Assembly: GCA_001873215.1 (NCBI GenBank) | Contig: MNYS01000003.1 | Coordinates: forward strand, 49,455-113,454 | Direction of reading: 5' to 3' | From: Candidatus Levybacteria bacterium CG2_30_37_29 | GTDB lineage: Bacteria; Patescibacteriota; Microgenomatia; Levybacterales; GWA1-39-11 | DNA: 64,000 nt | Shown: in pieces, positions 39,699 through 55,910 of the stretch | Position numbering within the stretch: position 1 is the first letter of the stretch | How the letters are laid out: every line of letters begins with the position of its first letter | Notes under the pieces: generated by a model | Told to the model about the DNA's origin: nothing | Databases searched by the model: none | The model's input: only the letters and a program-made list of their open reading frames with translations | Translations under genes and position numbers: made by a program

Positions 39699-42600
39699 AT
39701 GGAACCAAAAGATAAAAAATATACAAAAGACGAAGCAATTTTTTCGGCATCTCTGTCTTCGCGGAAAAATTTGAAAGATAATAAAAAATTTGACGCGATA
39801 AATATTTCAGACTTTACCGGTCTTAAGATTTTAGTGGCAAATCCGGAAGATATAATGCACTATTCTTATGGTGAAATCACAAAACCCGAAACAATTAATT
39901 ACAGAACATATCGTCCTGAAAAAGACGGACTTTTTGACGAAAGAATTTTTGGACCTACGCGCGATTTTGAATGTTATTGCGGAAAATATAAAAGGATTAG
40001 ATATAAGGGAATTGTTTGCGATAGGTGCGGAGTTGAAGTAACGTATTCCCGTGTAAGACGTGAACGTATGGGGCATATTAGCTTGGCGTGTCCTGTTGTT
40101 CATGTATGGTATTCAAAAGGCAGTCCTTCAAAACTTTCAACGCTTCTTGACATTGCGCAAAAGGATTTGGAGTCTGTTATTTACTTTGCATCTTATTTGG
40201 TTGTAGAAATTGATGAGGATAAAAGAAAAGAAGCACAAAAAACACTAAATGATATAAAAGATCAAAGAATTGACAAAATAAAACAGCAGGCAGATGAAGA
40301 AAAAAAGTCTCTTGGAAGCGAAGAAAAAGACAAAGTCAGCGAAACAAAAAAGACACTCAAAAAAGAACAGAAAGAGCTTGTGATGGAAGAAACAGAAGTA
40401 ATGTTTAGACAAAAAAAGATTGCACTTGAGAAAAGAGTTGAAACCGAAATCGCAAGAACTGAGGAAATATTCAACCGCGTAAACGACATAATAAAAGGGT
40501 TAAAACTTTGGGATGTTTTATCAGAAGAAGAATATATGCGTCTTATTGAATATGACGTTCCTATATTCTTTGAAGTTGAAACAGGCGCAGAAGGTGTTCT
40601 TCATGCAATTAATTCAATAGATGTACAAAAATTGGTTGGAGATCTCCGCGAAGAAACGCGTAAATCAAGCGGTCAAAAACAGCTAAAGCTTTTAAAAAGA
40701 CTTCATCTAATTGAGGCAATTCATAAAGCCGGTTTTAAACCATCGTCTCTTGTTATGAAAATTCTTCCCGTTTTGCCACCGGATTTGCGTCCTATGGTTC
40801 AGCTAAACGGCGGAAGATTTGCAACCTCAGACTTGAATGATTTGTATAGACGTGTTATTAACCGAAATAATCGTCTAAAACATCTCATCTCACTTGGTGC
40901 GCCGGAAATTATTTTAAGAAATGAAAAGCGGATGCTTCAGGAGTCGGTAGATTATCTTATTGATACGTCAATCAGAACGTCGCAAACGCAAAAACAATTT
41001 AAATCCCTTTCAGATATTCTTCGCGGAAAACAGGGACGTTTCAGAAAAAATTTGCTTGGAAAACGCGTTGATTATTCCGGACGTTCCGTAATTATTGTCG
41101 GGCCGGAGCTTGCACTTAACCAATGTGGTATTCCGAAAGAAATGGCACTTGAGCTTTTCAAACCGTTTGTTATTCGTGAGGTAATCTCCCGTGGCCTTAC
41201 AACTCCAAATGCAAAAGCCGCAAAAAGATATATTGAAAAACGTCCCCCGGAAGTTTTTGATATCTTAGAGGAAATTACAAAAAACCATCCTGTTCTTCTC
41301 AACCGTGCTCCAACACTACACAAGCTTGGTATACAAGCATTCTATCCTGTGCTTATTGAGGGAAGTGCTATTAAAATTCATCCTTGCGTATGTTCCGGAT
41401 ACAATGCTGATTTTGACGGAGACCAAATGGCAATACACGTTCCGTTGTCTACAAATGCTCAAGAAGAAGCAATAAAACTTATGATGCCGGCTCACAATCT
41501 TCTAAAACCTGCAGACGGCGCGCCGATTACGCTTCCAAATAAAGAAATGGCTCTCGGAGCATTTTACCTTACAAGTGTTGACGAGAGACTTCGGAAAAAA
41601 GAACTGCCGGTATTTTCAGATGCGATGGAAGCGCATTTTGCATTTTCTCTAAAAAAGATTTCGCTTCGTGAACCTATTAAAGCTCGTGTAAGTGGAAAAG
41701 TTAGGGAAACGACAATGGGAAGGATTCTTTTCAACGAGAGGCTTCCTGAGGACATGAGATTTATTGATACGGAAATAAAAGCGTCGACTATCAAACAAAT
41801 TGTTACCAAAGCTATGGTTTCGCATTCTGAAGAAGAAGTTGCAAATCTTATCGACAATCTTAAAGAGGTAGGTTTTTATGCCGCAACCGTTTCCGGAATT
41901 TCTGTTTCTACTTTTGATTTGAAAATGCTTGTAAATAAAGAAAAACTTATTCTTGAAGCTGAGGACAAAGCAAAAGAAATTGAAGAGGAATTTCAAAATG
42001 GACTTATAACACACGTTGAACAAAGAAGGCTTACAAATGAAGTTTGGCTTAATGTTACAGAGCAAATGGCTAATTTAACTTGGGAGCTTTTTGATAAAAA
42101 TGATATGGTACGGATTATCGCAGAGTCAGGAGGAGCGCGTGCAGGAAAAGACCAAATAAAACAATTGGCTGCAATGAGAGGACTTATATACGACCCGATG
42201 GGACGAATTGTTGAGCTCCCGATTAAATCAAATTTCCGCGAAGGTCTTTCAATTTTTGAATACGTAAATTCAGCCAGAGGAAGCCGTAAAGGTCTTACCG
42301 ACTCGGCTCTTAAAACTGCAGATGCAGGATATCTTACACGCCGCCTGGTAGATGTGGCGCACGACGTTATTATCCGCAAAGAAGATTGTGGAGTTGACGA
42401 AGGGCTCACAATCGCAATGGATAAAAGGGAAAATGAAAGCTATATGACAAATATGCTTTTGGGACGTGTTGTTCTAAAAGATGTAGTAAGTAAAAAAGCA
42501 AAAGAGTCAAGCAGAAGCGCAAAAAGTAAAAACGTTTTAGTCAAAAAAGGATCGGAAATTACTTACGAAAATTTGGCTGAAATAATAAAAGACGAAACAA

Positions 42601-43538
42601 TTGATCAGATAATTATTAGGACTCCGCTCTATTGCCGCCTCAAGTACGGAATTTGCGCAAGTTGTTATGGATGGGATTTGTCCGCATATAGAAGGACAGA
42701 TATGGGAACCCCGGTTGGTGTTATTGCCGCGCAAAGCATTGGAGAGCCCGGAACACAGCTTACTATGCGTGTTAAGCATTTTGGAGGAGTAGTTATGAGT
42801 GACGTGACGCAAGGACTTCCACGCGTTGAAGAGTTATTTGAAGTACGTCATCCAAAGAATTTGGCACCTGTTGCTGAAATTTCAGGAAAAATACAGGTTT
42901 CAAAAATGGAAGACGGATATGTTATACGAGTCCGCAATACAAAAGCAAAACCTGTTGAAGAGCGAGAATATTTTGTTCCTCTTACATCATCTATTCTTGT
43001 TGAAGAGGGAGTCAGCGTATCTGCAGGGACTCAACTTTGTGAAGGATATCTTGATCCGCGCGATATCTTAAAAATAAGCGGTCTATCTGACGCGCAAAAA
43101 TACTTAATTACGCAACTTCAAGATGTGTACGAATCCCAGGGAATTGCAATACACTACAAACATTTTGAAACAATCGTTAGGAAAATGTCTGATAAGGTAA
43201 TGATTGAAACTCCTGGAGACACGGCTCTTATGCCTGGAGATCTTGTTTCAAAACTTCGATTTGAAGATGAAAATGCAGCTGTTATTTCAGAAGGCGGAGA
43301 ACCATCTTCGGCACGGGAAATAATTTTGGGTGTAACAAAAGCGTCTCTTGTAACAGATTCATGGCTTTCAGCTTCTTCATTCCAAGAAACAACTCAAGTA
43401 TTAACAGATGCTTCTTTGGAAGGCCGCGTTGACAGGCTTATCGGTCTTAAGGAAAATGTTATTGTGGGCCGCCTAATCCCCGTCAGAGCAGAATTTATAG
43501 AAGCAGCAGCACCGGTTGATCAAAATCAGGTCGCATAA
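39699..43538 (+). CDS. rpoC: DNA-directed RNA polymerase subunit beta'
   Basis: Zn-finger CGKYKRIRYKGIVCDRCGVEV, catalytic NADFDGDQMA, trigger loop and bridge helix regions. Confidence 0.97.
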   Translation: MEPKDKKYTKDEAIFSASLSSRKNLKDNKKFDAINISDFTGLKILVANPEDIMHYSYGEITKPETINYRTYRPEKDGLFDERIFGPTRDFECYCGKYKRIRYKGIVCDRCGVEVTYSRVRRERMGHISLACPVVHVWYSKGSPSKLSTLLDIAQKDLESVIYFASYLVVEIDEDKRKEAQKTLNDIKDQRIDKIKQQADEEKKSLGSEEKDKVSETKKTLKKEQKELVMEETEVMFRQKKIALEKRVETEIARTEEIFNRVNDIIKGLKLWDVLSEEEYMRLIEYDVPIFFEVETGAEGVLHAINSIDVQKLVGDLREETRKSSGQKQLKLLKRLHLIEAIHKAGFKPSSLVMKILPVLPPDLRPMVQLNGGRFATSDLNDLYRRVINRNNRLKHLISLGAPEIILRNEKRMLQESVDYLIDTSIRTSQTQKQFKSLSDILRGKQGRFRKNLLGKRVDYSGRSVIIVGPELALNQCGIPKEMALELFKPFVIREVISRGLTTPNAKAAKRYIEKRPPEVFDILEEITKNHPVLLNRAPTLHKLGIQAFYPVLIEGSAIKIHPCVCSGYNADFDGDQMAIHVPLSTNAQEEAIKLMMPAHNLLKPADGAPITLPNKEMALGAFYLTSVDERLRKKELPVFSDAMEAHFAFSLKKISLREPIKARVSGKVRETTMGRILFNERLPEDMRFIDTEIKASTIKQIVTKAMVSHSEEEVANLIDNLKEVGFYAATVSGISVSTFDLKMLVNKEKLILEAEDKAKEIEEEFQNGLITHVEQRRLTNEVWLNVTEQMANLTWELFDKNDMVRIIAESGGARAGKDQIKQLAAMRGLIYDPMGRIVELPIKSNFREGLSIFEYVNSARGSRKGLTDSALKTADAGYLTRRLVDVAHDVIIRKEDCGVDEGLTIAMDKRENESYMTNMLLGRVVLKDVVSKKAKESSRSAKSKNVLVKKGSEITYENLAEIIKDETIDQIIIRTPLYCRLKYGICASCYGWDLSAYRRTDMGTPVGVIAAQSIGEPGTQLTMRVKHFGGVVMSDVTQGLPRVEELFEVRHPKNLAPVAEISGKIQVSKMEDGYVIRVRNTKAKPVEEREYFVPLTSSILVEEGVSVSAGTQLCEGYLDPRDILKISGLSDAQKYLITQLQDVYESQGIAIHYKHFETIVRKMSDKVMIETPGDTALMPGDLVSKLRFEDENAAVISEGGEPSSAREIILGVTKASLVTDSWLSASSFQETTQVLTDASLEGRVDRLIGLKENVIVGRLIPVRAEFIEAAAPVDQNQVA

Positions 43539-43581
43539 GATTAGTAATTTAATCCAAATTAAGGTAAAATAGGAAAATATT

Positions 43582-44007
43582 ATGCCAACATTAAATCAAT
43601 TAATTAAAAGAGGAAGAAGTAAAAAAATAAAGAAAATAAAAGCAACAGCGCTTAGGACTGTTTTTAATGCAAAAGACAGGAAATATTCTTTGGTTCCGGG
43701 ACCGCAAAAACGTGGTGTGGTAACGCTTGTCAGAACCATGACGCCAAAAAAACCAAATTCGGCTCTTAGAAAAGTTGCGCGCGTAAAACTTTCAAACCGT
43801 GAAGAAGTAACAGCTTATATTCAAGGAGTCGGACACAATTTGGCAGAGCACGGAATTGTTTTGGTCCGCGGCGGACGCGTAAAAGATTTGCCCGGAGTAA
43901 AATATCATTTAGTACGCGGAAAATTTGATTTGGCAGGAGTTGACGGACGCAAAACTTCAAGAAGTAAATATGGAGTAAAAAGACAAGGAGGACAAGCAGC
44001 AGCGTAA
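43582..44007 (+). CDS. rpsL: 30S ribosomal protein S12 with a short N-terminal insertion
   Basis: [14 protein letters not shown] and [13 protein letters not shown] are S12 signatures. Confidence 0.95.
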
Positions 44008-44095
44008 AATTTGCTGCAGATATTAGACAATAGACAGTAAAAATAGATTAGAAATATCTATTTGCTATTCACTATTATCTATTTACTAAATAACT

Positions 44096-44575
44096 ATGTC
44101 ACGCGGTGGAACAAAAATTAAAAAAAGAATAAATCCCGGGGATGCGGTTTACTCAAACCTGCTTTTGGGGAAATTTATCAACGGTCTTATGATGCACGGA
44201 AAAAAAACCGTTGCGCAAAGAGTGGTATACGGCGCGTTTGAAATATTAAAAAAAGAAGGACATGACCCACTTGGAGTTTTTGAGCAGGCAATTGAAACTG
44301 TTGGGCCAAAAGTAGAGGTAAAAGCCAGAAGAATCGGAGGAGCGGCGTATCAAGTTCCAACAGAGGTTAGGGGAGGACGAAAAAATTCCTTGGCGATTAG
44401 ATGGATTTTGGATGCGGCAAAAAAAAGACCGACTTCAGAATTTAAAACATTTTCGCAAAAACTCGCTGCAGAGCTTTTGGACGCTTCAAAAAATGCGGGC
44501 GAGGCAATAAAGAAAAGAGATGTAGCCCACCGTATGGCCGAAGCCAATAAGGCTTTTGCACACTTTAGATTTTAG
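44096..44575 (+). CDS. rpsG: 30S ribosomal protein S7
   Basis: S7 fold motifs RIGGAAYQVP and GEAIKKRDVAHRMAEANKAFAHFR. Confidence 0.95.
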   Translation: MSRGGTKIKKRINPGDAVYSNLLLGKFINGLMMHGKKTVAQRVVYGAFEILKKEGHDPLGVFEQAIETVGPKVEVKARRIGGAAYQVPTEVRGGRKNSLAIRWILDAAKKRPTSEFKTFSQKLAAELLDASKNAGEAIKKRDVAHRMAEANKAFAHFRF

Positions 44576-45299
44576 ATTTTAATTTTTCGTTAGATCTTTT
44601 TACGGCCCGATAAATTGTTCTCAGCTCCTGCATCGATAAAATATCATTCTCCATAATAATTTTTCTGCAATTTTCAGGGTTTTCTTTGTAAAGTTTGTCA
44701 ATGCAGAGAATTAGAACAACTAGGTCAGAAAAAACTTGGTCAACAGACTGACGATCATAAATCATTACATAAATAAACGTTATGCAAATAAGTATAAAGT
44801 TGATGTCAAAAGAATATGGAAAAATATCTACAAGGATTGATAGGAGAATGACAATTTCCAATCCGTTTCTAACTATGTTGTCGCCGTATCCTGAGGAATT
44901 GCTACTAGAAATTATATATATTGCTCCCTCCGGGTGATCTGCTTCCGGTCCTTCAAATTTTACTTGGTGGATATTTTTTAAATAAACAGAAATACTTCTT
45001 CTATTTTTGACATGCACCTTATAATACCAGGTTTTTTTTACAGCAGACCAAAGAGTTTCAGATAAAACAAAAATAAAAAATGTAATAATAATTACTGCCG
45101 TAATTCTTGCGGCTGATACGTAAAATTCAGCCTTGCTTGTAGAGGTGAAAACCGTGATTAAAAAAATACAAACAATAGCCGATGAAAATATTATTTTGTC
45201 GCGTAGGGAAGAAAAGTAATAAAAAGACAAAAACTTATATTTAACGGATATAAAGTCTTCTCTTATTCCAAAAAATAAATTTTTTAATTTCCCCAACAC
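44565..45299 (-). CDS. Hypothetical multi-pass membrane protein, first gene of the insert that separates rpsG from fusA
   Basis: Several hydrophobic helices. No recognised domain. It overlaps the rpsG stop by 11 nt on the opposite strand. Confidence 0.4.
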   Translation of the reverse strand: MLGKLKNLFFGIREDFISVKYKFLSFYYFSSLRDKIIFSSAIVCIFLITVFTSTSKAEFYVSAARITAVIIITFFIFVLSETLWSAVKKTWYYKVHVKNRRSISVYLKNIHQVKFEGPEADHPEGAIYIISSSNSSGYGDNIVRNGLEIVILLSILVDIFPYSFDINFILICITFIYVMIYDRQSVDQVFSDLVVLILCIDKLYKENPENCRKIIMENDILSMQELRTIYRAVKRSNEKLKSKI

Positions 45300-45417
45300 A
45301 CGTCAATTATACTCCCTAAAAACCAAGCCCAAAATTTTTCTTAAATCATAAATCATATATCATCCCAGCCTCAAAAAAAAGCTTGATAAAATTTTCTATC
45401 TGACGTAAAATAAGGTT

Positions 45418-45612
45418 ATGAAACAGAAAAAGATAGATTTCGTAAAATTATTAAAAGGTTTTAAGTCGGGGTGGGTAGGGATTTCCACAGACCATAAAAA
45501 AGTTCTCGTTCACGGGGAAACACTAAAAGAAGCAAAATTAAAAGCAGAGGAAAAAAAATTAGACTTATTTTTCTTCCCCGCCGGTGAGAGATATGATAAC
45601 TTCGTAGGCTAA
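45418..45612 (+). CDS. Small hypothetical protein, upstream partner of a retropepsin-like gene (module copy 2)
   Basis: Homologous to 23317-23559. There is a 2-nt gap to the downstream gene. Confidence 0.4.
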   Translation: MKQKKIDFVKLLKGFKSGWVGISTDHKKVLVHGETLKEAKLKAEEKKLDLFFFPAGERYDNFVG

Positions 45613-45614
45613 AA

Positions 45615-46022
45615 ATGATCACGGTCGAATACAGTCCCATGCCGGGTTTGAAAAATTCTCTACCTCAACCAATGTTACCTTTAAAATTTATTAATGGAAC
45701 AAAAGAAGTTTCAACTTATGCGTTGGTCGATTCCGAAGCAGCCGGAGCTGTAATTTCTACCGTAATCGCAGAAGACTTAGGGATAGACTGGCAAAAGATT
45801 CCGGGAGTCGGTGGATTTTCAGTTGGTGGAAATTTTATTTCTCACGCGGCAAAAATAAAAGTCAGAATATTTGACGAGGAATTTGGATTAAATGTAAATA
45901 TAATTGAAGGAGTGGCTCCATATAAAGCTATTTTGGGTCAAAGAGATTTGTTTCAAAGGGCAAAAATTATTTTCGAAGGATACAAAAAAGTATTTCATAT
46001 TGAATTTAGAAACTACAACTAA
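45615..46022 (+). CDS. Retropepsin-like (clan AA) protein, module copy 2, with an altered active-site motif (DSEA instead of DSG)
   Basis: ALVDSEAAGAVISTVIAEDLGIDW aligns with ALIDSGSDHNIFPAELASEIGLDY of copy 1. C-terminal AILGQRDLFQRAKIIFEGYKKVFHIEF aligns with PVLGRNGFFNYFKKVNFDVKNKNFEL. Confidence 0.5.
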   Translation: MITVEYSPMPGLKNSLPQPMLPLKFINGTKEVSTYALVDSEAAGAVISTVIAEDLGIDWQKIPGVGGFSVGGNFISHAAKIKVRIFDEEFGLNVNIIEGVAPYKAILGQRDLFQRAKIIFEGYKKVFHIEFRNYN

Positions 46023-46295
46023 AACCCATAACCTACTTTTTTTACGAAGTAAAACAAAGGTAGCAAAGCGTCCCATCTATCAACCTATTACCTATAACCT
46101 AGTGAACCTATCACCTACATCAATTTCAAAAAGGTGCTAAAATAAGCCAAAAGCAGTATAATTTTTTCAGTTTTTTTATTCCTAATTTTTATTTGGCTTC
46201 TGGGCCGCGGGGTTTTATTATTTTTTTCCAGTTTAAACATTATTAACAACAGGTATATTTCGGTCAAACATTCAAACGAACATCGGAACGTTCTA

Positions 46296-46319
46296 TCTCA
46301 TGTTCTCGAGAACATGAGA
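46296..46319. promoter_or_regulatory. Perfect 24-bp palindrome TCTCATGTTCTCGAGAACATGAGA flanked by GAACGTT motifs, a candidate operator
   Basis: Perfect dyad centred on CTCGAG, about 90 nt upstream of the MBL-fold hydrolase gene. Both flanks contain GAACGTT. Confidence 0.45.
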
Positions 46320-46405
46320 ACGTTAGGTTATTTTTTCTCGTAATTTAACTCCCTAGCCGTATAATTTTCTTTCTCCCTGACTTTTTTTGTGGTATATTTT
46401 ATCCA

Positions 46406-47068
46406 ATGGAAAATGTGACTTGGTTGGGGCATGCTTCTTTTTGTTTTACCGATTCCCAAACAGGGCAGAAGATTTATTATGTAGATCCGTTCAATTTACC
46501 AAAAAATCCGCCGGCTGGCGGAGCAGATATTATTTTTATCACTCATGCACATTATGATCATTTATCGAATACCGATATTAGTTTAATTCTCAAACCGAAA
46601 ACAACGGTTGTCGCAACACCTGACAGCTTAAAAACTCTAAATATTACTCAAGTTAAATTTCCCGTTGAGCCGAATAAATCATACGAAATTAACGGATTCA
46701 AATTTGATACGGTTCCGGCATACAATGTGGTGCCTGAGCGTTTAAGCTTTCATCCAAAATCAAACAATTGGGTAGGGTACATTTTTAATTTAAACGGTCT
46801 TACAATTTACCATGCGGGAGACACGGATTTTACTGCCGAGATGAATACGTTCGACAAGCTCAGTATTGACATTGCGATGCTTCCGATGGGCGGGACTTAT
46901 ACGATGAATGTTGAAGAGGCAATTGAGGCGGCAAATGCAATTGGCGCAAAAAAAACAATTCCCATGCATTATAAAAGTCTGTTAAAAGAAAAAGCTTGCG
47001 AGGCCGAGGAAAAATTGAAAAAAGGCGTTGTGAATTCTGAAGTCGTGATTCTTGAAGAATTGAGATAA
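46406..47068 (+). CDS. MBL-fold metallo-hydrolase
   Basis: FITHAHYDHL metal-binding motif, HAGDTDF, about 220 aa of beta-lactamase fold. Confidence 0.75.
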   Translation: MENVTWLGHASFCFTDSQTGQKIYYVDPFNLPKNPPAGGADIIFITHAHYDHLSNTDISLILKPKTTVVATPDSLKTLNITQVKFPVEPNKSYEINGFKFDTVPAYNVVPERLSFHPKSNNWVGYIFNLNGLTIYHAGDTDFTAEMNTFDKLSIDIAMLPMGGTYTMNVEEAIEAANAIGAKKTIPMHYKSLLKEKACEAEEKLKKGVVNSEVVILEELR

Positions 47069-47240
47069 TATTTTCTTTGTACTTTTGTCCGCCAAAAGAA
47101 GCAAAACCTCTCGTCGTGTCGTGCTCACGCATTACGTCTTTTCCTCGTTCACTGAAAGAGCCGGACAAGCCTTTCCTCTTTCCTGGCGTTCACTCGGGCA
47201 AGACTTCAAGAGTTGCGCGCGAAACGACGAATATGCTTCA
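47066..47240 (+). repeat. Roughly 175-nt conserved intergenic element, copy A, beginning at the stop codon of the MBL-hydrolase gene
   Basis: Aligns at about 70-80% with 55714-55886. Shared blocks: TAAT.TTT.TTTCTT, TCCGC.AAAAGAA.CAAAA.CTCTCG.CG.GTC, CACTGAAAG, CGGAC, GCCTTTC, CTTTCC.GGCGTTC, TTCAAGA, CG.CGAATAT.CTT. Confidence 0.6.
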
Positions 47241-47338
47241 ATCGCAATGGAAAAATGTACTGCGAATCGAAGAATGAAAGATATTGTGCGCAAAACGATA
47301 AACAAAGCAAAAATGGCGCGCGAAACGATAATGAAAGA

Positions 47339-47977
47339 TTATTCAACAGTAATTCCTAAAATGCGGTCGCCGATTTTTATTGTATTAACCACATTCATTC
47401 CGTCAGTCACAATTCCAAAATTTGTATATTGATTATTGAGCCATGGAGCTTCCGTTTTTGTTATAAAAAATTGTGAATCGTTTGAGATTTTTATGTCGCC
47501 TCCGCGCGCAACACCAACGGATCCAACAACAAATGGTTTTTCGCTTAATTCTGTCGGCAAATCTCCTCCACCGGTACCGTTGCCTTTAGGGTCTCCTCCT
47601 TGGATTACCCAATCTTCAACACGGTGAAACGTAAGATTGTTGTAAAATCCGCTTTGTGCTTTTTGCACAAAATTTGCCACAGTCCCCGGCGCTTCTTTTC
47701 CGTAAAACGAAAAAACAATATCTCCCTTGCTTGTTTTAATAGTGGCCTTTTTTGCCGCAACAGGGTTTATTGTTGGCACAGCAGATGTAGAGGACGGGGT
47801 AACACTAATAGACGGTGCAATTGTAATAAGGCGCTGGACCTGAACGGTTGGTGAAGGTACAACCGGAATTTGCGGAGTGAATGTTGTCTGCTTTGTTTGC
47901 AAAAGAAAGTAGAGGCCGCCAAACCCAATGACGACAAGAACTATAAATATAATCGCTGTTCTACTCATAAAACCCAT
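47339..47977 (-). CDS. Cyclophilin-type peptidyl-prolyl cis-trans isomerase with an N-terminal membrane anchor
   Basis: FHRVEDWVIQGGDPKGNGTGG, FFITK, and the TM anchor IIFIVLVVIGFGGLYFLL. Confidence 0.85.
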   Translation of the reverse strand: MGFMSRTAIIFIVLVVIGFGGLYFLLQTKQTTFTPQIPVVPSPTVQVQRLITIAPSISVTPSSTSAVPTINPVAAKKATIKTSKGDIVFSFYGKEAPGTVANFVQKAQSGFYNNLTFHRVEDWVIQGGDPKGNGTGGGDLPTELSEKPFVVGSVGVARGGDIKISNDSQFFITKTEAPWLNNQYTNFGIVTDGMNVVNTIKIGDRILGITVE

Positions 47978-48024
47978 ACATGAAGACCTATTCTAATCAA
48001 TTTAAATAAAAAATTCAAGGACTA

Positions 48025-48053
48025 TTGACAAACACTCTTTAATGTATTAATAT
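48025..48053 (+). promoter_or_regulatory. Sigma70-like promoter (TTGACA, 17 nt, TAATAT) for the copper locus
   Basis: TTGACA at 48025-48030, TAATAT at 48048-48053. Confidence 0.5.
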
Positions 48054-48073
48054 ATCCCTCATGGGGGGATATA
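48051..48073 (+). promoter_or_regulatory. CsoR-type operator (TATATCCC-N-GGGATATA), overlapping and just downstream of the -10 element
   Basis: TATATCCCTCATGGGGGGATATA has 8-bp inverted arms around a G-tract. It resembles ATACCC-N-GGGGTAT CsoR operators, and it lies 25 nt upstream of csoR. Confidence 0.55.
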
Positions 48074-48097
48074 ATTAGGCATCATTCCGCACAAAAT

Positions 48098-48373
48098 ATG
48101 GCATATAGACCAAAGGATACACAAGAAAGAATTGCTCATCGCCTTAAAATCGCGAGGGGGCATCTTGAGAAGGTTATCAGTATGGTTGAAAACGATTCTT
48201 ACTGCATTGACGTTTTACATCAACTGCAAGCCGTTGAAGGAGCGCTTAAAGAAACCGGCAATGCGGTTTTGGAAAATCATTTAAAAACATGTGCTGCCAA
48301 TGCAATAAAAGAAGGAAAAGGTAACGAGGCAATCGAGGAAATTATGAATGTTTTCAAGAAAAAAGCAAATTAA
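48098..48373 (+). CDS. csoR: CsoR/RcnR-family metal-sensing (copper) repressor
   Basis: DUF156 fold with the Cys...His...Cys ligand pattern (YCIDVLHQ ... C in KTCAAN). Four-helix bundle length. Confidence 0.8.
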   Translation: MAYRPKDTQERIAHRLKIARGHLEKVISMVENDSYCIDVLHQLQAVEGALKETGNAVLENHLKTCAANAIKEGKGNEAIEEIMNVFKKKAN

Positions 48374-48747
48374 TGGATAAAGTTTTTGTTTTTATCGGTG
48401 GAATTTTAGGTATTATTTTTACTGCTTGGTTTTTCTTCGGAAAAAAAGATGAAGCGGTCCAAGCACGTTCTGAAAGCCCGGAAAAAGCAGAGGTCGATAT
48501 TTTAGTAAAAGGAGGATATCAACCTTCTACGGTTCAAATTAAAAAAAACAAAATTACAACTTTTAATTTTACAAGGCAAGATGAAAATAGCTGTCTTGAA
48601 GATGTTATATTGTCCGAATTTAAAATAAAACGCTTTCTTCCTCTCGGAAAAACCGTTTCTTTTGAAATTAAACCTGAAAAGACCGGTACGTTTGACTTCT
48701 CATGCGGCATGGGCATGTTTCATGGAAAACTTATCGTTAAGGATTAA
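48373..48747 (+). CDS. Membrane-anchored cupredoxin-like domain protein
   Basis: N-terminal TM helix. [24 protein letters not shown]...[15 protein letters not shown] resembles the cupredoxin_1-type domain found near copper ATPases. The start overlaps the csoR stop (TAATG). Confidence 0.5.
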
Positions 48748-48748
48748 T

Positions 48749-50992
48749 ATGAAAACACTTAAAAAAACTTATTCACTAAAAGGTATGCATTGTGCATCTT
48801 GCGTACGAGTGATTGAAAGGGCGTTAAAAAAAGTTGACGGGGTTCTTGACGCAAACGTAAATTATGCTTCGGAAAAAGCAATCGTCACAATAGAAGAAAG
48901 AGTAAAAGATGATGATATTTTAAATTCCGTTTCTAGCGTAGGATACCAAGCTTTACTGGCTAATAATACTTCTGATGAAGAAGAAAATAAGGAAAAACAA
49001 AAAGATTTGGTAAGCTTAAGAAATAAAGTTGCTGTAAGTCTTTTTTTCGGAGCAATAATTACGTGGGGAAGTTTTCCCGGATTATCAAATTACGCTCCCG
49101 ATCTTTTTAAAAACTTTTTCTTTCAGCTTTTGCTTGCTACTCCTGTTCAATTCTGGGCAGGGCTCGCTTTTTACAAAGCCACAATTCCTGCACTTAAAAA
49201 TAGAACGGCAAACATGGATACACTTGTCGCAATAGGCACAAGCGTTGCATACTTTTATTCAGTTTTTGTAACGTTTTTTCCTGCAATACTTCAAAAATTT
49301 CAAATAGAAGCAATGCCTTATTTTGATGTTGCATCTGTTGTTATCGGATTAATTTTGTTAGGAAGGTTTTTGGAAGCCAAAGCCAAAGGACAAACCTCTC
49401 AGGCAATAAAAAAATTAATAGGACTTCAGGCAAAAACAGCGCGTGTTGTTAGAGACGGAAAGGAAATTGATGTTCCCATACAAGACGTAGTCGTAGGAGA
49501 TTTAATTCGCGTTAGACCCGGTGAAAAAATTCCGGTTGATGGAATTGTGACTGAGGGAGATTCGTCAATTGACGAATCTATGGTTACCGGAGAAAGCATT
49601 CCGGTTGAGAAAACAATTAAAGATATTGTAATCGGAGCAACATTAAATAAGTCAGGAACATTTCTTTATAAAGCAACAAAAGTAGGAAGTGAGACGATGC
49701 TATCTCAAATTATAAAACTCGTTCAAGAAGCGCAAGGAAGCAAGGCACCAATTCAAAGACTTGCAGATGTAATTTCTTCATATTTTGTTCCTGTCGTTAT
49801 AATTCTTTCTATTTTAACCTTTGTCGTATGGTATGTTTTTGGTCCTACGCCCGCTCTTGTTTTTGCAATTCTAAATTCTATTGCGGTTCTTATAATTGCA
49901 TGCCCGTGCGCAATGGGACTTGCAACACCCACGGCAATAATGGTCGGCACTGGAATAGGCGCTGAAAATGGGATTTTAATAAAAGATGCCCAGAGTCTTG
50001 AAATTGCCCATAAAGTAAATACAATTATTTTTGATAAAACAGGAACTTTGACTCACGGAACACCTAAGGTAACGGATATAGTTAAAGTTCAAAGTTCAAA
50101 ATTCAAAATTCAAAGTGATAGTGAGATATTAAGGTTGGCTGCCTCACTTGAAAAAGGGTCGGAACACTCTTTGGCAGAAGCAATTGTAAAAGACGCAGAA
50201 AATAAAAAAATTACATTAGATAAAATTGATAAATTCAAAGCCGTACCCGGACACGGGGTTGAAGGATTTCTAAAAATGGATAAAGTAATTCTTGGGAATA
50301 GAAAAATGATGGAGAGAGAAAAAGTTAACTTTAAGGATTCTGAAGAACAAATTGAAAAACTTGAGACAGAAGGAAAAACGGTTATGATGATAGCTGTTAA
50401 AAATGAGCTCATCGGGCTAATTGCAGTAGCAGATACGATAAAAGATAGCGCAAAAGAGGCAATACAAATACTTAACAAAATGCGTATTCAGACTATTATG
50501 ATTACTGGAGATAACATGAGAACTGCTGATGCAATAGCTAGAAGTTTGGGAATTTCTAAAATTTTAGCGGATGTTCTTCCTCAAGACAAAGAAAATGAGG
50601 TTAGAAAAATACAAAGTCAGGGAAAAGTTGTGGCAATGGTAGGAGACGGAATAAACGATGCTCCTGCGCTTGCCGCAGCTGATGTAGGAATAGCAATGGG
50701 AAGCGGTACTGACGTTGCAATTGAGGCAGCCGATATAACTCTTATAAATCATGATTTAAAGTCTGTAGTAAAAGCAATTATACTTTCCAAAAAAACAATG
50801 AGAACGATAAAATTAAATCTTTTCTGGGCATTCGGATACAATATAATTCTTATTCCTGTTGCGATGGGAGCTTTATATCCTTTTTCCGGCATACTCTTAA
50901 ATCCAATTTTTGCATCATTTGCTATGGCAACAAGTTCTGTGTCTGTTGTTACAAACTCTTTATTATTAAAACGTGCGAAAATTAATGTATAA
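48749..50992 (+). CDS. copA: Copper-translocating P1B-type ATPase CopA with an N-terminal HMA domain
   Basis: [25 protein letters not shown] ([11 protein letters not shown]), [17 protein letters not shown]. The ATG at 48749 overlaps the upstream stop codon. Confidence 0.9.
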
Positions 50993-51004
50993 TATTGCCA
51001 AGCT

Positions 51005-52033
51005 ATGAATTTAACAGCAGTATTTTTAACAGGACTTTTAACAGGAGGGCTTACGTGCATGGCGGTTCAGGGCGGACTTCTTGCTGCAACAATTGCAAAC
51101 AGAGAAGAAGAAAGGCTTAAAGAAGAAACGAAAAAAGGAAACGCCTTGCCAATTCTTGCTTTTTTAGGAACAAAACTTATAGCATATACGGTTTTGGGAT
51201 TTTTATTGGGTCTTTTGGGAAGCGTTTTCCAGCTTTCCATACCTTTACGGACTACCTTTCAAATCGCGGTTGCTGTTTTTATGATCGGAACTGCTCTAAA
51301 TCTTCTTAATGTTCATCCAATTTTTAGGTACTTTATCATCCAGCCGCCAAAAATTTTGACACGTCTTGTAAGAAATAGATCAAAGAGCAAGGATTTTTTT
51401 GCGCCGGCGCTTTTAGGAGCGTTTACCGTATTTATTCCGTGCGGAACAACGCAAGCAATGATGGTCCTTGCAGTTGGCTCGGGAAATCCGTTTTTAGGAG
51501 CAGCAATTCTTTTCGCGTTTGTCCTTGGAACATCTCCTATATTTTTCATACTGGGATACTTTGCGACAAAACTGGGAGATATTATGCAGAAAAATTTCGC
51601 AAAAGTCGCGGCAATTTCTATTATCCTTTTGGCTATTTACAACCTTGACGGTGCAATCGCGCTTACAGGAAGTAATTGGACACTTAAAAATATGTTTTCA
51701 AAAACAGTGTGTTTTTTTACTCTATGTGATGATGGCTCGAAAACCAACAATATTGCATTACAGGTCACTCAAGGTCCGGTTATTGATATAGAATCATATG
51801 GATACAATCCAAATATTATAAATGTCAAAGCAAATTCTAACGTAACTTTAAAAATTACAAACACAAACGGAAGTGGATGCATACAAGCATTTACTATTCC
51901 TCAATTAGGAGTACAAAAAGTTATTCCGCTGGGAACTTCTGACACAATTTCTTTTACAGCACCAGATGCTCCTCAAGATATTGCATTTATGTGCAGTATG
52001 GGAATGTTTCGGGGAATAATACATGTTATTTAA
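51005..52033 (+). CDS. Polytopic membrane protein (DsbD_2/TauE-like permease) fused to a C-terminal cupredoxin-like domain
   Basis: At least six hydrophobic helices with conserved Cys (GGLTCMAVQGG, FIPCGTTQAM). The C-terminal VKANSNVTLKITNTNGSGC...FMCSMGMFRGIIHV is paralogous to the 48373 cupredoxin-like protein. Confidence 0.45.
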   Translation: MNLTAVFLTGLLTGGLTCMAVQGGLLAATIANREEERLKEETKKGNALPILAFLGTKLIAYTVLGFLLGLLGSVFQLSIPLRTTFQIAVAVFMIGTALNLLNVHPIFRYFIIQPPKILTRLVRNRSKSKDFFAPALLGAFTVFIPCGTTQAMMVLAVGSGNPFLGAAILFAFVLGTSPIFFILGYFATKLGDIMQKNFAKVAAISIILLAIYNLDGAIALTGSNWTLKNMFSKTVCFFTLCDDGSKTNNIALQVTQGPVIDIESYGYNPNIINVKANSNVTLKITNTNGSGCIQAFTIPQLGVQKVIPLGTSDTISFTAPDAPQDIAFMCSMGMFRGIIHVI

Positions 52034-52249
52034 ATGAAAAAAATAAAACTTAAAATAAAAGGTATGCATTGTGCAAGTTGCGCTATGAATATAGATGGTG
52101 ATTTAGAAGATTTGGTAGACGGGGTAAAATCATCCAACACAAGTTATGCAAAGGGAGAAGTTGAGATTGAGTTTGATGAGAAAAATGTGAAAATTGAACA
52201 AATAATAAAGCAAATTACAAAAACAGGATATCAAGCAGAAATAGAATAA
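52034..52249 (+). CDS. copZ: Copper chaperone CopZ (HMA domain)
   Basis: GMHCASCAMNI metal-binding motif, 71 aa ferredoxin-like fold. Confidence 0.8.
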   Translation: MKKIKLKIKGMHCASCAMNIDGDLEDLVDGVKSSNTSYAKGEVEIEFDEKNVKIEQIIKQITKTGYQAEIE

Positions 52250-52256
52250 TTTTAGA

Positions 52257-53324
52257 CTATAGTTCTATAAGGTTTTTTGGAGATTGCGTGAGCAGATTTA
52301 TTTTTTCTCCATCAAAATATACAGTATCTTCTATTCTTACTCCGCCAAAACCATTTATATAAATTCCGGGCTCTATGGTAAAGGGCGTGTTTGGATTAAT
52401 CTTTTCTTTAATTCCTGGGGAAATATGTGGAAGTTCATGGACAGCAAGTCCAACCCCATGTCCAACAGAATGTGGGATATTTGGGTATCCTTGGGAAATA
52501 ATATAATCTCTTGGGATTTTATCCAGATCTTGAGGCGTAAACATTTTTGGTTTAAACCCTTTTTCCTGCCCAATCCTCACTGTTTCGTACATTCTTTTAA
52601 ATTTTTCTGGAGCTTTTCCGAAAAAAACAGTGCGCGTCATGTCTGCGCAATATCCACCAGCCTTTGCGCCAAAATCCAAAAGAACAATTGAGCTTGATTT
52701 AAGTTTGGTTTCATCTGTTTTATGGTGAGGGATTGCAGAATTTTTACCAAAAGCGATAATTGACGGAAAACCAAGTTCTCCTCCGTGTTCGCGAATAAAC
52801 TTTTCAATTTCCCATGCCAATTCAAGCTCTGTTATTCCATTTCGGATCTTTTTTAAAACATAATCGAGAGCAGAGTCCGTAAGGTTGCAAGCTTTATGTA
52901 GTGATTTAAGTTCGGTTTGATCTTTAATTGTTCGAATTTCCTCGATAATACTCTCTGCAAGTTTAAGCTTAACCCCTATTAATTTTTTAAAGCGAATGTA
53001 TTCTGAATAAGTTAGATTTTCTTCAAAACCAATATTTGTTATCTTCTCATGTTTTAAAAACTCTTCAAGCGTTTTTTGGAGTTGGGTTATCAAAAAAACT
53101 TTGATCGGATCTTTTACCGATTTTTTAACCTCATCAAAATAAAGAGTGTTTGTAAATAAAATTGCATATTTTTTTGTCACAAAAATATATGCGTCACGTT
53201 CTTCAGACATAAATCCGGAGTATCCCGTGATGTAGCGGATATTTATGCTTGAGCTAACTAATAGCGCATCAATCTTTCTTTCTGTGAGTATTGTTTGGAT
53301 TTTTTGTATTCTGTTAGGGTTCAT
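52257..53324 (-). CDS. M24-family Xaa-Pro aminopeptidase
   Basis: Creatinase-like N-domain plus the pita-bread domain with metal ligands (DFGAKAGGYCADMTRT, HSVGHGVGLAVHE, ENTV). Confidence 0.8.
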   Translation of the reverse strand: MNPNRIQKIQTILTERKIDALLVSSSINIRYITGYSGFMSEERDAYIFVTKKYAILFTNTLYFDEVKKSVKDPIKVFLITQLQKTLEEFLKHEKITNIGFEENLTYSEYIRFKKLIGVKLKLAESIIEEIRTIKDQTELKSLHKACNLTDSALDYVLKKIRNGITELELAWEIEKFIREHGGELGFPSIIAFGKNSAIPHHKTDETKLKSSSIVLLDFGAKAGGYCADMTRTVFFGKAPEKFKRMYETVRIGQEKGFKPKMFTPQDLDKIPRDYIISQGYPNIPHSVGHGVGLAVHELPHISPGIKEKINPNTPFTIEPGIYINGFGGVRIEDTVYFDGEKINLLTQSPKNLIEL

Positions 53325-53568
53325 TTTCGAAATTATAGCACGGTCTTAGTGTATTTACATAAGGTGATGAGTCTGGTAAAATAACATGAGTTCGAATTTC
53401 GTCAAACCGCTGGCGGTGTCGTAATTCGAATTTTTTTGATTTAGCGTATATTATACCGTTAACTCTTGGCGCGTTCGCAAACTTGCTCACTTGCCAGAGA
53501 CTCACGGTATTTTCTCGCTCAAGGACTTTTATTTATAGAGCGCGTAGCTTGCATAAGGAGCTCAAAAA

Positions 53569-55716
53569 ATGGCTGATACAGATAGAAACGTACCGTTAGA
53601 AAAAATTCGCAATATCGGGATTATTGCGCATATTGACGCGGGAAAAACCACAACTTCCGAGCGCATTCTTTTTTACACAGGAAAGTCCTACAAGATTGGT
53701 GATATTGATGAAGGAAATACTGTTATGGACTGGATGGATCAGGAGCGCGAACGAGGAATTACTATTGTCAGTGCCGCAACAACCACTTTTTGGACACATA
53801 CTCCTATCGGTAAGTCCAGTGACCAAGATGCACCTTACAGGATAAATCTTATCGATACTCCAGGACACGTTGACTTTACAGCAGAGGTTGAAAGATCTCT
53901 CCGCGTTTTGGACGGCGCGGTTACCGTTCTTGATGCTGAAGAAGGCGTCCAGTCGCAAAGTGAAACTGTTTGGCGTCAGGCAGACAAATACAAAGTCCCG
54001 CGAATTTGTTTTATCAACAAAATGGATAAGCTCGGAGCTGATTTTCTAAAGACTGTTGCTTCTATTGAGAAACGTCTTGGTGCAAACCCGATTATTATGG
54101 TTCTTCCGATTGGCGCGGAGCAGGATTTTAAGGGAATTGTTGATCTTTTAAACATGAAAACCATTACTTGGACAGGCGAGGAACTCGGCGCAAAGTATGA
54201 CGTGTCCGATGAAATTCCTGAAAATATGAAAAAGCTAGTTGAAGAGTACCGCCACAAAATGATTGAGAAAATTGCGGAAAACGATGATGAGCTTTTGGAT
54301 AAATATTTAAATGGAACAGAATTGACTGTTGAGGAATTAAAGGCCGGTCTTAGAAAAGCGGTAGTTGGTTATAAAGTAGTTCCAATTTATGCGGGGTCTT
54401 CTCTGCGCAATAAAGGCGTTCAGCCGCTTCTTGATGCAGTCGTTGATTATCTTCCGTCACCAATGGATTTGAAAGAAGTGAAGGGTTTGTCTCCAAAAAC
54501 GGGCGCGGAAGAAATAAGACAATTGGTTCCCGAAGAATCTTTTGCGGGCTTTGCTTTTAAAGTTCAAATTGACCCTCACGTTGGGAAAATTACATTTGTT
54601 CGCCTCTACTCCGGCAAAATTGATTCCGGTTCATACATTTATAATTCTTCAAAAGGAATAAAAGAGCGTGTCGGGCGCCTTCTTCTTATGCATTCAAATC
54701 AACGTGAGGAAATAAAAGTTGCTTATTCCGGAGAAATTGTTGCTGTTGTCGGTTTGAAAGACACGGTTACCGGAGATACATTGTGTGATGAGGCAAAACC
54801 TATTATTCTTGAAAAAATTTCATTTCCTGAGCCTGTTATTTCTCTTGCAATTGAGCCGAAAACAAAAAATGATCAGGAGAAAATGGGACTTGCGCTAAAA
54901 AGGCTTATGGAAGAAGATCCTACTTTTAGCGTTAAGACAAATCATGAAACAGGGCAGACAATTATGTCGGGGATCGGCGAGCTGCAATTGGAGATTATGG
55001 TTGACCGCATGAAGCGGGAATTTGGCGTTGACGCAAATGTAGGCGCGCCTCAAGTGGCCTACAAAGAAACAATTGCTATTGAAGCAACAGGTGAGGGTAA
55101 ATATATTAAGCAAACAGGAGGACGTGGGCAATATGGACACTGTCTTCTTAGAATTGCGCCCGTACCGCGTGGTGAAGGCTACGAATTTGTAAATGCAATA
55201 AAAGGAGGCGCGATTCCTGCCGAATTTATAGGTTCTATTGAAAAAGGAGTTAAGGAGACTTTGGAAAAAGGAATTTTATTGGGGTATCCGATGGTTGATA
55301 TGAAAGTAACTGTTTACGACGGTTCATATCATGATGTTGATTCTTCAGATATTGCTTTTAAAATTGCTGCGAGTATGGCGCTTCAAACAGCTTCCAAAAA
55401 AGCAAATCTACAACTTCTTGAACCGATTATGAAAATTGAGGTGACAACTCCTGAAGAATTTATGGGAGATGTAATAGGTGATCTTAGTTCAAAGCGTGCG
55501 CAAATCACAGGAACAGAAGAACGCGGAAATGCGCGCATAATTTTGGGTCTTGTTCCGCTGTCAGAACTTTCAGGATACGCGACGACTCTTAGGTCTATGT
55601 CGCAGGGACGCGCTACTTATTATATGGAACCTTCGCATTACGAAGAAGTTCCGCGAAACATTGTTGAAGCAATGCTTGCCAAATCCACATTCACCGGAAG
55701 AATTACCGCGCAGTAA
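53569..55716 (+). CDS. fusA: Elongation factor G
   Basis: [28 protein letters not shown], and domains II-V. Confidence 0.95.
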
Positions 55717-55886
55717 TTTATTTCTTGTTCTTTTTTCCGCAAAAAGAACCAAAAGCTCTCGCCGAGTCTTGTTCAAGCTTTCAAAATTTATTTCACTCAC
55801 TGAAAGCATCGGACTTCGCCTTTCAGCTTTCCGGGCGTTCGTTCAACAAATTTTTCAAGATTTCACTTCAAATCGGCGAATATACT
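55714..55886 (+). repeat. Roughly 175-nt conserved intergenic element, copy B, beginning at the fusA stop codon
   Basis: Homologous to 47066-47240 in the same orientation. Confidence 0.6.
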
Positions 55887-55910
55887 TAGAATTTAGTATA
55901 ATTAATTGTT

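Follow-up and report, generated by a model that had tools for sequence, protein, structure and literature searches.

A new long-hairpin repeat interspersed in a few uncultured Levybacteria, most likely by insertion

Correia, ERIC, BOX and RUP elements are intergenic imperfect palindromes of 100–200 bp that are often co-transcribed with their neighbours and are patchily distributed between strains and species. Mobility is known for the Correia and RUP elements, which have terminal inverted repeats and TA duplications, and BOX elements are modular (A–B–C). REPIN hairpins show compensatory changes, and roles as ssDNA or mRNA hairpins have been proposed for them (PMC3116915). Insertion of IS200/IS605 elements takes place in the lagging-strand template and 3′ of a specific tetranucleotide (PMC5027513). 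Here we describe a repeat of around 165–180 nt that folds into a long hairpin and is scattered in a few uncultured Levybacteria (CPR, Microgenomates). It is previously undescribed: searches of the literature on CPR structured RNA, on Levybacteria repeats and hairpins and by assembly accession returned no description of it. Its copies most likely represent a small mobile element that arrived by insertion, and not a gene, a peptide or a leader of aclB.

Two copies, A and B, lie in the window, which is the whole 64-kb stretch of Candidatus Levybacteria CG2_30_37_29 DNA that was analysed. An earlier note on this DNA had paired the regions 47066–47240 and 55714–55886, and these are genuine repeat copies: a MAFFT alignment of 47040–47345 with 55690–55930 gave 73% column identity over the element, and blastn of one copy against the window returned the other with an E value of 8e-16. 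All of the conserved blocks that the note had listed are invariant between A and B (TCCGC.AAAAGAA, CTCTCG, CACTGAAAG, CGGAC, GCCTTTC, CTTTCC.GGCGTTC, TTCAAGA and CGAATAT.CTT). Neither nhmmer (--max) nor a covariance model run with filters off revealed copies beyond A and B in the window; a candidate third copy upstream of fusA (53381–53539; 19.6 bits, E ~0.06) has no recognizable apex and was treated as a chance match. The features at the two loci are as follows.

47066..47068, + strand: TAA that natively ends the MBL-fold hydrolase gene (ORF 46406–47068, Pfam Lactamase_B_3)
47069..47250, + strand: copy A, comprising T-rich spacer, P1 hairpin, linker, long hairpin and 3′ extension (covariance model and alignments)
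47082..47098, + strand: P1 hairpin of copy A, CTTTTG, loop TCCGC, CAAAAG (single-sequence folds and covariation)
47111..47230, + strand: long imperfect-palindrome hairpin of copy A (folds, covariation and inverted repeat)
47148..47195, + strand: conserved asymmetric apex of copy A, TTCACTGAAAGAGCCGGACAAGCCTTTCCTCTTTCCTGGCGTTCACTC, which holds the helix GAAAGAG/CTCTTTC and GG/CC
47283..47337, + strand: two tandem 30-nt solo 3′-arm ends, GCGC[GA]AAACGATAA... (direct repeats, motif count and blastn)
55714..55716, + strand: native TAA stop codon of fusA, flanking DNA that abuts the P1 end of copy B
55717..55893, + strand: copy B of the element (covariance-model match 55710–55893, 152.8 bits)
55727..55749, + strand: P1 hairpin of copy B, GTTCTTTTT, loop TCCGC, AAAAAGAAC (folds and covariation)
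55759..55879, + strand: long hairpin of copy B, with closing stem TCGCCGA/TCGGCGA
55796..55844, + strand: conserved apex of copy B, CTCACTGAAAGCATCGGACTTCGCCTTTCAGCTTTCCGGGCGTTCGTTC (alignments)
55897..55902, + strand: TATAAT box of aclB, context outside the element (read from the sequence; 8 nt before the ATG at 55911)

Both copies begin at the stop codon of the upstream gene, as had been noticed before. The TAA of the MBL-fold gene is flanking DNA outside the element and supplies the TAR trinucleotide next to the P1 end of copy A, and fusA ends ...AQ* both in the window and in two orthologues that lack the element (L043 and L045). A GAAGAATT match lies 5′ of both stops; in fusA it codes for a conserved G-R-I, and because the element-free fusA orthologues also have G-R-I, we regard the match as coincidental. 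The similarity therefore does not reach into the coding flanks but ends at the native stop codons, as expected of a discrete element rather than a segmental duplication. The covariance-model match of copy A spans 47062–47244 (152.8 bits, E 7e-28), element boundaries being fuzzy by up to around 10–30 nt on the 3′ side, and the short 3′ extension of copy A is common to copy H. The GCGCGCGAAACGA direct repeats reported 3′ of copy A are indeed present, at 47207–47227, 47278–47298 and 47308–47328; the exact motif occurs three times at the copy A locus and once elsewhere in the window, inside rpoC. The solo 3′-arm ends sit between copy A and the stop codon of a convergent cyclophilin gene. The proposal that copy B forms the 5′ leader of aclB is not supported, because the TATAAT box lies between the element and the gene, so that aclB has its own promoter; the same TATAAT-to-start arrangement is found at aclB in L043 and L045.

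Further copies were retrieved from genome and metagenome scans by a pattern built from the conserved apex, giving nine distinct copies (A–I). Around 20 other matches to the short core were chance matches and were discarded after nhmmer, and the apex pattern had no match on viral contigs. Copy C follows rpsJ just beyond the window (L001 20081–20263), and copies D, E, F, G, H and I lie on other Levybacteria-like contigs. All nine are intergenic and at mutually unrelated sites, with neighbour genes that include fusA, rpsJ, rplL and sodN. The hosts of the window copies and of copy I are Levybacteria; the MAGs with copies D–G are labelled ‘uncultured Gammaproteobacteria’, and the names returned by a homologue search were a mixture of CPR and Chloroflexi. 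The copies form subfamilies (A and H are 76% identical, B and C 87%, as against 66% for A and B in the same comparison), and solo 3′-arm fragments lie downstream of four of them (A, C, H and E), the one after copy E matching copy G at 18 of 19 positions. Copy number in the host genome looks low, with three copies in around 83 kb, all inside 19 kb. Taken with strong covariation and with insertion relative to empty orthologous sites (see below), these nine copies from several genomes support the miniature repeat family that the earlier note had offered as one candidate.

All nine copies share one architecture: a T-rich spacer of around 8 nt, a P1 hairpin of 9–11 bp, a CAAAAG linker and a hairpin of around 120 nt. 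This last hairpin is built of two collinear arms that form an imperfect palindrome with symmetric internal loops of 1–3 nt, and it is far longer than the stems proposed earlier (47111–47230 in A, 55759–55879 in B). The closing stem is TCGTCGT/ACGACGA in copy A, and that of copy B carries two compensatory changes relative to it. The asymmetric apex, of around 45 nt, is nearly invariant in sequence, whereas the arms vary and covary; copies A, D, H and F agree exactly over around 34 nt of the apex and copy I departs from them at three positions, all of these copies being from different loci or genomes. Across the family the apical helix is GAAAGAG/CTCTTTC, replaced by GAAAGC/GCTTTC in copies B and C. 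Compensatory pairing had been suggested for a CTGAAAG/CTTTCAG stem; such pairing is present, but that particular stem is confined to copies B and C. An alternative apical fold, GCCGG/CUGGC, was rejected because, in the alignment, copies B, F and G do not preserve it.

Many double substitutions preserve the base pairing. Paired cells make up 84.4% of the total, compared with 66.1% in shuffles, and none of 500 shuffles reached the observed value. Changes on both sides were seen in 37 of 51 pairs (38–57% in slid controls), including 8 of 10 pairs in helix 1 (P1) and 28 of 32 in helices 2–4. Identical helices recur in every single-sequence fold, with energies of −28 to −60 kcal/mol and z-scores of about −2 to −4. 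This covariation across nine copies bears out the idea of a discrete structured element with compensatory changes. An Rfam scan, which had been proposed as a check, assigned the element to no family: with Rfam 15 there was no match at the gathering score in the window or at six related loci, save an unrelated L10 leader in L017, and around both copies noise alone appeared at E values up to 10. With no promoter or terminator attached to it either (see below), the element is not obviously an RNA gene.

We consider the copies to be insertions because relatives have empty sites at three orthologous positions. In relatives whose S10 protein is 83–92% identical, the copy is absent both between fusA and aclB and after rpsJ, and in L045 the spacer at the empty site is 51 nt. 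For copy F, the corresponding spacer between a methyltransferase gene and rnhB in the relative L055 is just 54 nt long and contains two back-to-back extended −10 boxes, and in L053 around 177 nt of element lie exactly between the orthologous −10 boxes. Comparison of the filled L053 site with the empty L055 site revealed no target-site duplication, within boundaries uncertain by a few nucleotides, and in copies B, C and G the TAA/TAG on the 5′ side is not the same as the TTAR motif on the 3′ side. There are no terminal inverted repeats: the palindrome is internal, and the left end (spacer and P1) has no inverted counterpart at the right end. Close strains showed no presence/absence polymorphism, all assemblies of a given population carrying identical copies.

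A TAA or TAG lies 8–10 nt from the P1 end in seven of the nine copies, and TAT takes its place in two. Given a chance rate for TAR of 0.098 per copy, the probability of at least seven in nine is 2.6e-6, a preference for a motif of only 3 nt that is confounded with selection because only the start of the intergenic spacer tolerates insertion. Five copies have a native stop codon as this TAA or TAG, and the five stops share one alignment column. Read in the element orientation, locus GC skew is positive (+0.05 to +0.17) for all nine copies, at seven loci, including copy H, which is antisense to its flanking ORFs; this strand bias is subject to the same selective confounding and also to that of gene orientation. 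All nine copies are oriented as expected for an active strand on the lagging-strand template, a result in which orientation and transcription are separable only at copy H.

How does the element compare with the described systems? It resembles REPINs, which are moved by RAYT transposases, in being short, non-coding, extragenic and probably non-autonomous, in forming one long hairpin with pairing kept by compensatory changes, and in leaving solo remnants and clusters. In REPINs, however, REP sequences are conserved at both ends around a variable middle, whereas in this repeat conservation lies in the apex and variation in the arms; the element also has the extra 5′ hairpin P1 and an apparently low copy number, and its hosts are CPR bacteria rather than proteobacteria. 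With IS200/IS605 elements and their derivatives (PATEs) it shares the lack of terminal inverted repeats and of a target duplication, a subterminal hairpin around 10 nt from the left junction, what looks like a left end joined 3′ of a short specific sequence, and an orientation consistent with an active strand on the lagging-strand template. IS200/IS605 elements have hairpins at both ends, whereas in the element P1 fits a left end and the right end offers only the foot of the long hairpin; their target is a tetranucleotide, unlike the putative TAA/TAG (TAT in two copies), and the family is not known for long internal palindromes in which the apex is conserved. Scanning around 45 window proteins revealed no RAYT (Y1 HUH) domain, TnpA or other transposase, HUH enzyme, integrase or reverse transcriptase.

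The remaining comparisons are more distant. Without terminal inverted repeats or a target duplication, the element differs from classical MITEs such as Correia and RUP, and it has no sequence similarity to Correia, ERIC, BOX or RUP. Like integron attC sites, it is an imperfect hairpin of variable sequence and conserved pairing that begins at or just after a stop codon, oriented as the upstream ORF; its ends, however, lack RYYYAAC/GTTRRRY core sites, its apex is conserved whereas attC centres are variable, and its neighbours are housekeeping genes (fusA, rpsJ, rplL) rather than cassette arrays with an integrase. 6S RNA is likewise a long irregular hairpin of around 180 nt, but it has a large central bubble in place of the symmetric 1–3-nt loops seen here. 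The element further differs from it in having an extra hairpin outside the closing stem and several non-syntenic copies, and the Rfam model of 6S RNA (RF00013) had no match around either copy even at E values up to 10.

Our preferred model, held at about even odds, is that the element is mobile but non-autonomous and moves as a folded single strand, as REPINs or IS200/IS605 derivatives do. An enzyme encoded elsewhere would copy it, recognizing the folded strand through P1 and the conserved apex, in a mode resembling the mobilization of IS200/IS605 derivatives and REPINs by HUH/Y1 transposases. The P1 end would be joined just 3′ of TAA or TAG, with neither terminal inverted repeats nor target duplication, and the active strand would lie on the G-rich strand, that is, the lagging-strand template. 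Stop codons would be the TAA/TAG sites at which compact genomes tolerate insertion, which would explain why copies start at a stop and are oriented like the upstream gene; insertions might survive only in the gap that separates a stop codon, or a −10 box, from the promoter next to it. The element would probably be carried passively as an RNA hairpin when flanking genes are transcribed, and any effects on termination or mRNA stability would be secondary. Counting against this model are the conservation of the apex and not of the ends (the reverse of REPINs and classical MITEs), the right end without a second P1-like hairpin, the apparent low copy number, the negative scan of around 45 window proteins for a candidate enzyme, the uniform presence of the copies among assemblies of one population, the fuzzy 3′ boundary and the confounding of the TAR preference and strand bias.

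The strong covariation shows selection on pairing, and together with the stable folds it would also suit a cis-acting RNA structure, located in 3′ UTRs or intercistronic spacers and selected by the host, a reading that we consider rather unlikely. The long hairpin could block 3′ exonucleases or polymerase read-through as a terminator or insulator, P1 could affect terminating ribosomes 8–10 nt past the stop, and the structure could have spread by duplication owing to its usefulness. Six copies do share the orientation of the gene that they follow, five of these being placed right at its stop codon, and several lie just 5′ of the next gene’s own −10 box, where a terminator is expected. Yet divergent promoters flank copies G and F, and copy H runs antisense to its neighbours, which means that none of these three can be part of an upstream message; copy I follows a canonical terminator and would be redundant there, neither hairpin is followed by a U-tract on either strand, close relatives manage without the element at the same sites, and a plain barrier hairpin needs no nearly invariant apex. 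That apex, with one strand CU-rich and its complement GA-rich, could instead be the target- or protein-binding part of paralogous trans-acting (sibling) sRNAs, possibly encoded on the strand opposite to the one noted earlier, since an sRNA seed is expected to combine conservation of a single-stranded apical sequence with stems that vary. The complementary strand is G-rich and folds to a lower energy in eight of nine copies, and on the given strand A·C mismatches (19) outnumber G·U pairs (12); but the dinucleotide-shuffle z-scores are equal on both strands, and the lower energy is therefore compositional. Neither the wobble-pair counts nor the z-scores single out a transcribed strand. Consensus scans of both strands found no promoter or terminator attached to copies A, B and C, no promoter common to the copies was found on either strand by scan or by eye, and a shared terminator is likewise absent, the similarity of B and C stopping at the hairpin ends. 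As the copies are also not syntenic between species, and their perfectly collinear arms and symmetric loops look like a DNA palindrome and not an evolved RNA fold, we judge sibling sRNAs improbable.

Two simpler readings are hardly credible. Copies A, B and C translate alike in one frame at the start of the element, where the earlier note had left room for a tiny basic peptide (SAKRSKTSRRVVL...), but six-frame translation of all nine copies found no conserved start codon and no frame that stays open in every copy, copy E has an in-frame stop, and the frame is not kept across the nine because the P1 loop varies by 4–7 nt; the region is the covarying P1 stem and linker, which places the similarity at the nucleotide level. 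The presence of two copies only 8.6 kb apart might likewise point to coincidence or to a single local segmental duplication in this genome, against which stand the blastn E value, the other seven copies, which occupy unrelated loci and extend to other genomes, and similarity that ends at native stops and carries many compensatory substitutions. More tentatively than single-strand mobility as such, we entertain a new CPR-specific structured nucleic acid, which would be either a single-strand mobile element that homes to stop codons because its left end is targeted to TAA/TAG, and whose apex is read by a novel HUH-like enzyme, or a functional RNA of around 170 nt whose invariant apex binds a conserved partner. 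A tRNA/tmRNA search returned nothing, and ORF74, downstream of copy C, was set aside as a partner, having only a weak winged-helix-like Pfam match below the cut-off and no link to the element.

CPR genomes are tiny and compact, and the filled and empty sites of the element make it useful for tracing how plastic the genomes of uncultured Levybacteria are; should both the stop-codon (TAR) targeting and the strand bias hold, they would point to a single-strand transposition system in this group. Insertion of the element accounts for unusually long spacers in the otherwise conserved rpsG–fusA–tuf–rpsJ–rplC cluster. For annotation, ORFs should not be called across the element, as was done for rnhB in L053.

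Copies A (47066-47240) and B (55714-55886) of the element, a hairpin-forming repeat of about 165-180 nt, resemble each other over their whole length: column identity is 73%, and all of the sequence blocks listed in the earlier note are invariant. A blastn search of a copy against the window retrieves the other copy (E 8e-16), and neither nhmmer --max nor a covariance model run without filters found any copy beyond these two in the 64 kb. As that note had claimed, the likeness begins at stop codons, setting in directly after both TAA triplets, with the following genes on either side:

46406-47068, plus strand, MBL-fold hydrolase gene, upstream neighbour of copy A
47339-47977, minus strand, cyclophilin gene, convergent neighbour on the other side of copy A
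53569-55716, plus strand, fusA, upstream neighbour of copy B
55911-57086, plus strand, aclB, downstream neighbour of copy B

The match of the 8 nt GAAGAATT that precede both stops is coincidental; in fusA they are the codons for G-R-I, which also occur in orthologues without the element. The direct repeats GCGCGCGAAACGA reported 3' of copy A are genuine. The small basic peptide that had been entertained is not borne out: the region consists of the covarying stem of P1 (the hairpin near the 5' end) and a linker, and no frame is both open and conserved in all copies. In a six-frame view of the nine copies there is no conserved start codon, and P1-loop indels put the copies in different frames; the element is non-coding. 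Nor is copy B the leader of aclB, because this gene keeps a TATAAT box of its own 7-8 nt upstream of its start codon, whether or not the element is present. A weak covariance-model match at 53381-53539 scores 19.6 bits (E roughly 0.06) and falls in the spacer from which an M24 peptidase gene and fusA diverge. It contains a hairpin AATTCGAATTTCG...CGTAATTCGAATT and no recognisable apex (the tip of the long hairpin); it is probably a chance match, and less probably a decayed copy.

Exact matches of the window's proteins identify its host as Candidatus Levybacteria bacterium CG2_30_37_29, a member of the CPR/Microgenomates, and the A/B locus recurs in many assemblies. Copy C lies 2 kb past the window end, directly 3' of the rpsJ stop codon (contig L001, 20081-20263), and pattern scans for the apical motif, with nhmmer and the covariance model applied to the results, led to six more distinct copies:

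Copy D, L014, between sodN and sodX
Copy E, L012, after an amino-acid kinase gene
Copy F, L013 / L053, between divergent rnhB and methyltransferase genes
Copy G, L012, between divergent msrA and DUF1801 genes
Copy H, L023, antisense to both adjoining ORFs
Copy I, L017 (another Levybacteria genome), 3' of the rplL terminator and 5' of rpmB

Across the roughly 83 kb covered of the window genome there are just three copies, all inside 19 kb. Subfamilies can be told apart among the copies: A with H, B with C, and D, E, G and F in a looser set. Solo 3'-arm ends follow copies A (a tandem pair), C, H and E; the one after E equals copy G at 18 of 19 positions. Viral contigs gave no match to the apical motif in a pattern scan, and a tRNA/tmRNA search found none. 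The element is real and has no entry in Rfam, which returned no match at any threshold.

Several of these loci have features of their own. Directly downstream of copy H, L023 3000-4180 has 52% G+C (about 38% in the genome) and overlapping ORFs without Pfam matches; Rfam and tRNA searches of it were empty, and it may be foreign DNA. A 74-aa ORF (L001 20371-20595) with a weak, below-cut-off match to the winged-helix-like Pfam family HVO_A0114 was inserted along with copy C in the interval from rpsJ to the rplC leader, and is absent there in the relative L043. On the contig of copy I, an Rfam L10_leader (RF00557) match just at the gathering score lies upstream of rplJ (L017 1668-1833, minus strand).

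Single-sequence folding gives the same fold for every copy, with these parts in 5' to 3' order:

T-rich spacer, about 8 nt (10 nt in A, B and F), first part of the element
P1 hairpin, 9-11 bp, arms U-rich / A-rich, loop GCCG or UCCGC
Linker, CAAAAG, between P1 and the long hairpin
Long hairpin, about 120 nt, closing stem TCGTCR.../...YGACGA

The inner stems of the long hairpin vary in sequence among copies and keep their complementarity. Its arms are exactly collinear, so that the internal loops are all symmetric (2x2, 3x3), and one of them is an invariant UC/UC. The apex is asymmetric and near-invariant over about 45 nt (TCACTGAAAGAGCCGGACAAGCCTTTCCTCTTTCC-TGGCGTTCACTC), comprising a helix GAAAGAG/CTCTTTC, an inner GG/CC pair and a 3' bulge that carries insertions in copies F and I. 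When the nine copies were realigned to a covariance model made from the hand-assigned structure, standard pairs filled 84.4% of cells against 66.1% after shuffling (0 of 500 shuffles reached the observed value) and 37 of 51 pairs changed on both sides, figures that are somewhat inflated by fitting the alignment to the model and with which the independent single-sequence folds are concordant. Sliding the 3' partners by 1-3 columns lowers pairing to 38-57%. These data show that the pairing is kept by selection.

Comparison with empty sites identifies the copies as insertions. Levybacteria relatives whose S10 is 83-92% identical share the synteny fusA-aclBA...tuf-rpsJ-rplC and lack the element; the fusA-aclB spacer of L045 measures 51 nt, and because fusA ends in ...AQ* in all three genomes, its stop codon is native. 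At the site of copy F, just 54 nt separate the start codons of the methyltransferase gene and rnhB in the relative L055. This spacer holds a pair of extended -10 boxes placed back to back (TGAGATAAT and TGCTAGAAT), with 6-7 nt from each to its start codon. L053 has both orthologous boxes intact (TGGTATAAT and TGTTACAAT), with about 177 nt of element exactly between them and zero duplicated bases. The public rnhB call there (L053 9146-9952, 268 aa) is extended by 52 codons across the element; orthologous proteins measure 216 aa, and the GTG at about 9318 is the true start codon. The 134-nt fusA-aclB spacer of L043 (3981-4113), unrelated to the element by nhmmer, opens with CTTG, a small hairpin (GTCC TTAC GGAC) and CAAAGAAC, a loose likeness to the element's spacer, P1 and linker that could be a remnant or a coincidence.

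The triplet adjoining the spacer is TAA or TAG (TAR) in seven of the nine copies; the remaining two have TAT. Five times TAR is the upstream gene's native stop codon, always at the same alignment column, whereas G and F owe it to the neighbour's -10 box, an ancestral sequence, read as its reverse complement. With a random-position probability of 0.098 for TAR at 8-10 nt, at least seven of nine has P = 2.6e-6, a pattern partly confounded with selection because compact genomes leave free only the first bases after a stop or between promoters. The G-rich strand of the locus (GC skew +0.05 to +0.17) carries one and the same element strand in all nine copies (seven loci), which is partly confounded with gene orientation; copy H, with its long neighbouring ORFs on the opposite strand, is among them.

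Consensus scans found no promoter or terminator belonging to the element, which is not obviously an independent RNA gene. B and C, the most recent pair (87% identical), lose their likeness immediately outside P1 and the closing stem. The given strand, C-rich in all copies, has 12 G.U versus 19 A.C cells; its complement has the lower folding energy in eight of nine copies, a compositional effect, as dinucleotide-shuffle z-scores are equal on both strands. None of these measures singles out one strand as the transcribed one.

Taken together, these features best fit a non-autonomous element that would move as a folded single strand: a discrete unit with non-syntenic insertions, subfamilies and solo ends, selected pairing and a conserved apex, in which neither terminal inverted repeats nor target duplication was found, with a subterminal hairpin about 8-10 nt from the TAR junction and the same strand relation to GC skew throughout. 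Two alternatives are possible but less likely: an RNA hairpin acting in cis under host selection, with a role in termination, insulation or mRNA stabilisation, and a trans-acting small RNA family. Copies G, F, H and I count against both, as do the missing transcription signals, the close relatives without the element and the palindromic geometry. Among known elements, REPINs have compensatory changes in a long hairpin and are proposed to act as ssDNA or mRNA (PMC3116915), and the left end of IS200/IS605 elements goes in on the 3' side of a specific tetranucleotide, on the lagging-strand template and without duplication (PMC5027513). The element lies outside both groups as defined: it is conserved at the apex rather than the ends and has no second P1-like hairpin. 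No HUH enzyme was present among the approximately 45 window proteins scanned. Literature searches aimed at the element found no description. It belongs to the known class of hairpin-forming interspersed repeats, in a lineage for which those searches gave none.

The usually contiguous rpoC-rpsL-rpsG-fusA-tuf-rpsJ-rplC cluster (39699-59022 and L001) is interrupted three times in the window genome: between rpsG and fusA by about 9 kb of unrelated genes, a copper-resistance set among them, between fusA and tuf by about 9 kb with aclBA, murB, NUDIX and other genes, and between rpsJ and rplC by about 0.7 kb. Relatives L043-L046 carry other inserts at these same junctions. ATP-citrate lyase-like genes (aclB-like and aclA-like, 55911-59022) lie directly 3' of fusA, as in L043 and L045. 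Upstream of rplC, two Levybacteria (L001 20628-20757, about 2.7 kb past the window end; L043 10388-10530) share TTGCAT/TTGCAA, 17 nt, TATAAT and then about 90 conserved nt ending in a canonical hairpin and T-run (GCGACTTCGGTCGCTTTTTT). This resembles a ribosomal-protein leader or attenuator; L048, which covers it, had no Rfam match at the gathering score. In many genes (aclB, rpmB, sodX, rnhB and the methyltransferase gene are examples) a TATAAT-like box, frequently preceded by TG, lies just 6-8 nt ahead of the start codon, and there is no Shine-Dalgarno sequence:

Window 55897-55913
L053 9107-9123 and 9301-9320
L055 9232-9291
L017 about 409-430, minus strand
L014 about 5190-5215, minus strand

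This pattern suggests leaderless mRNAs; fusA, by contrast, has AAGGAG 8 nt upstream of its ATG.
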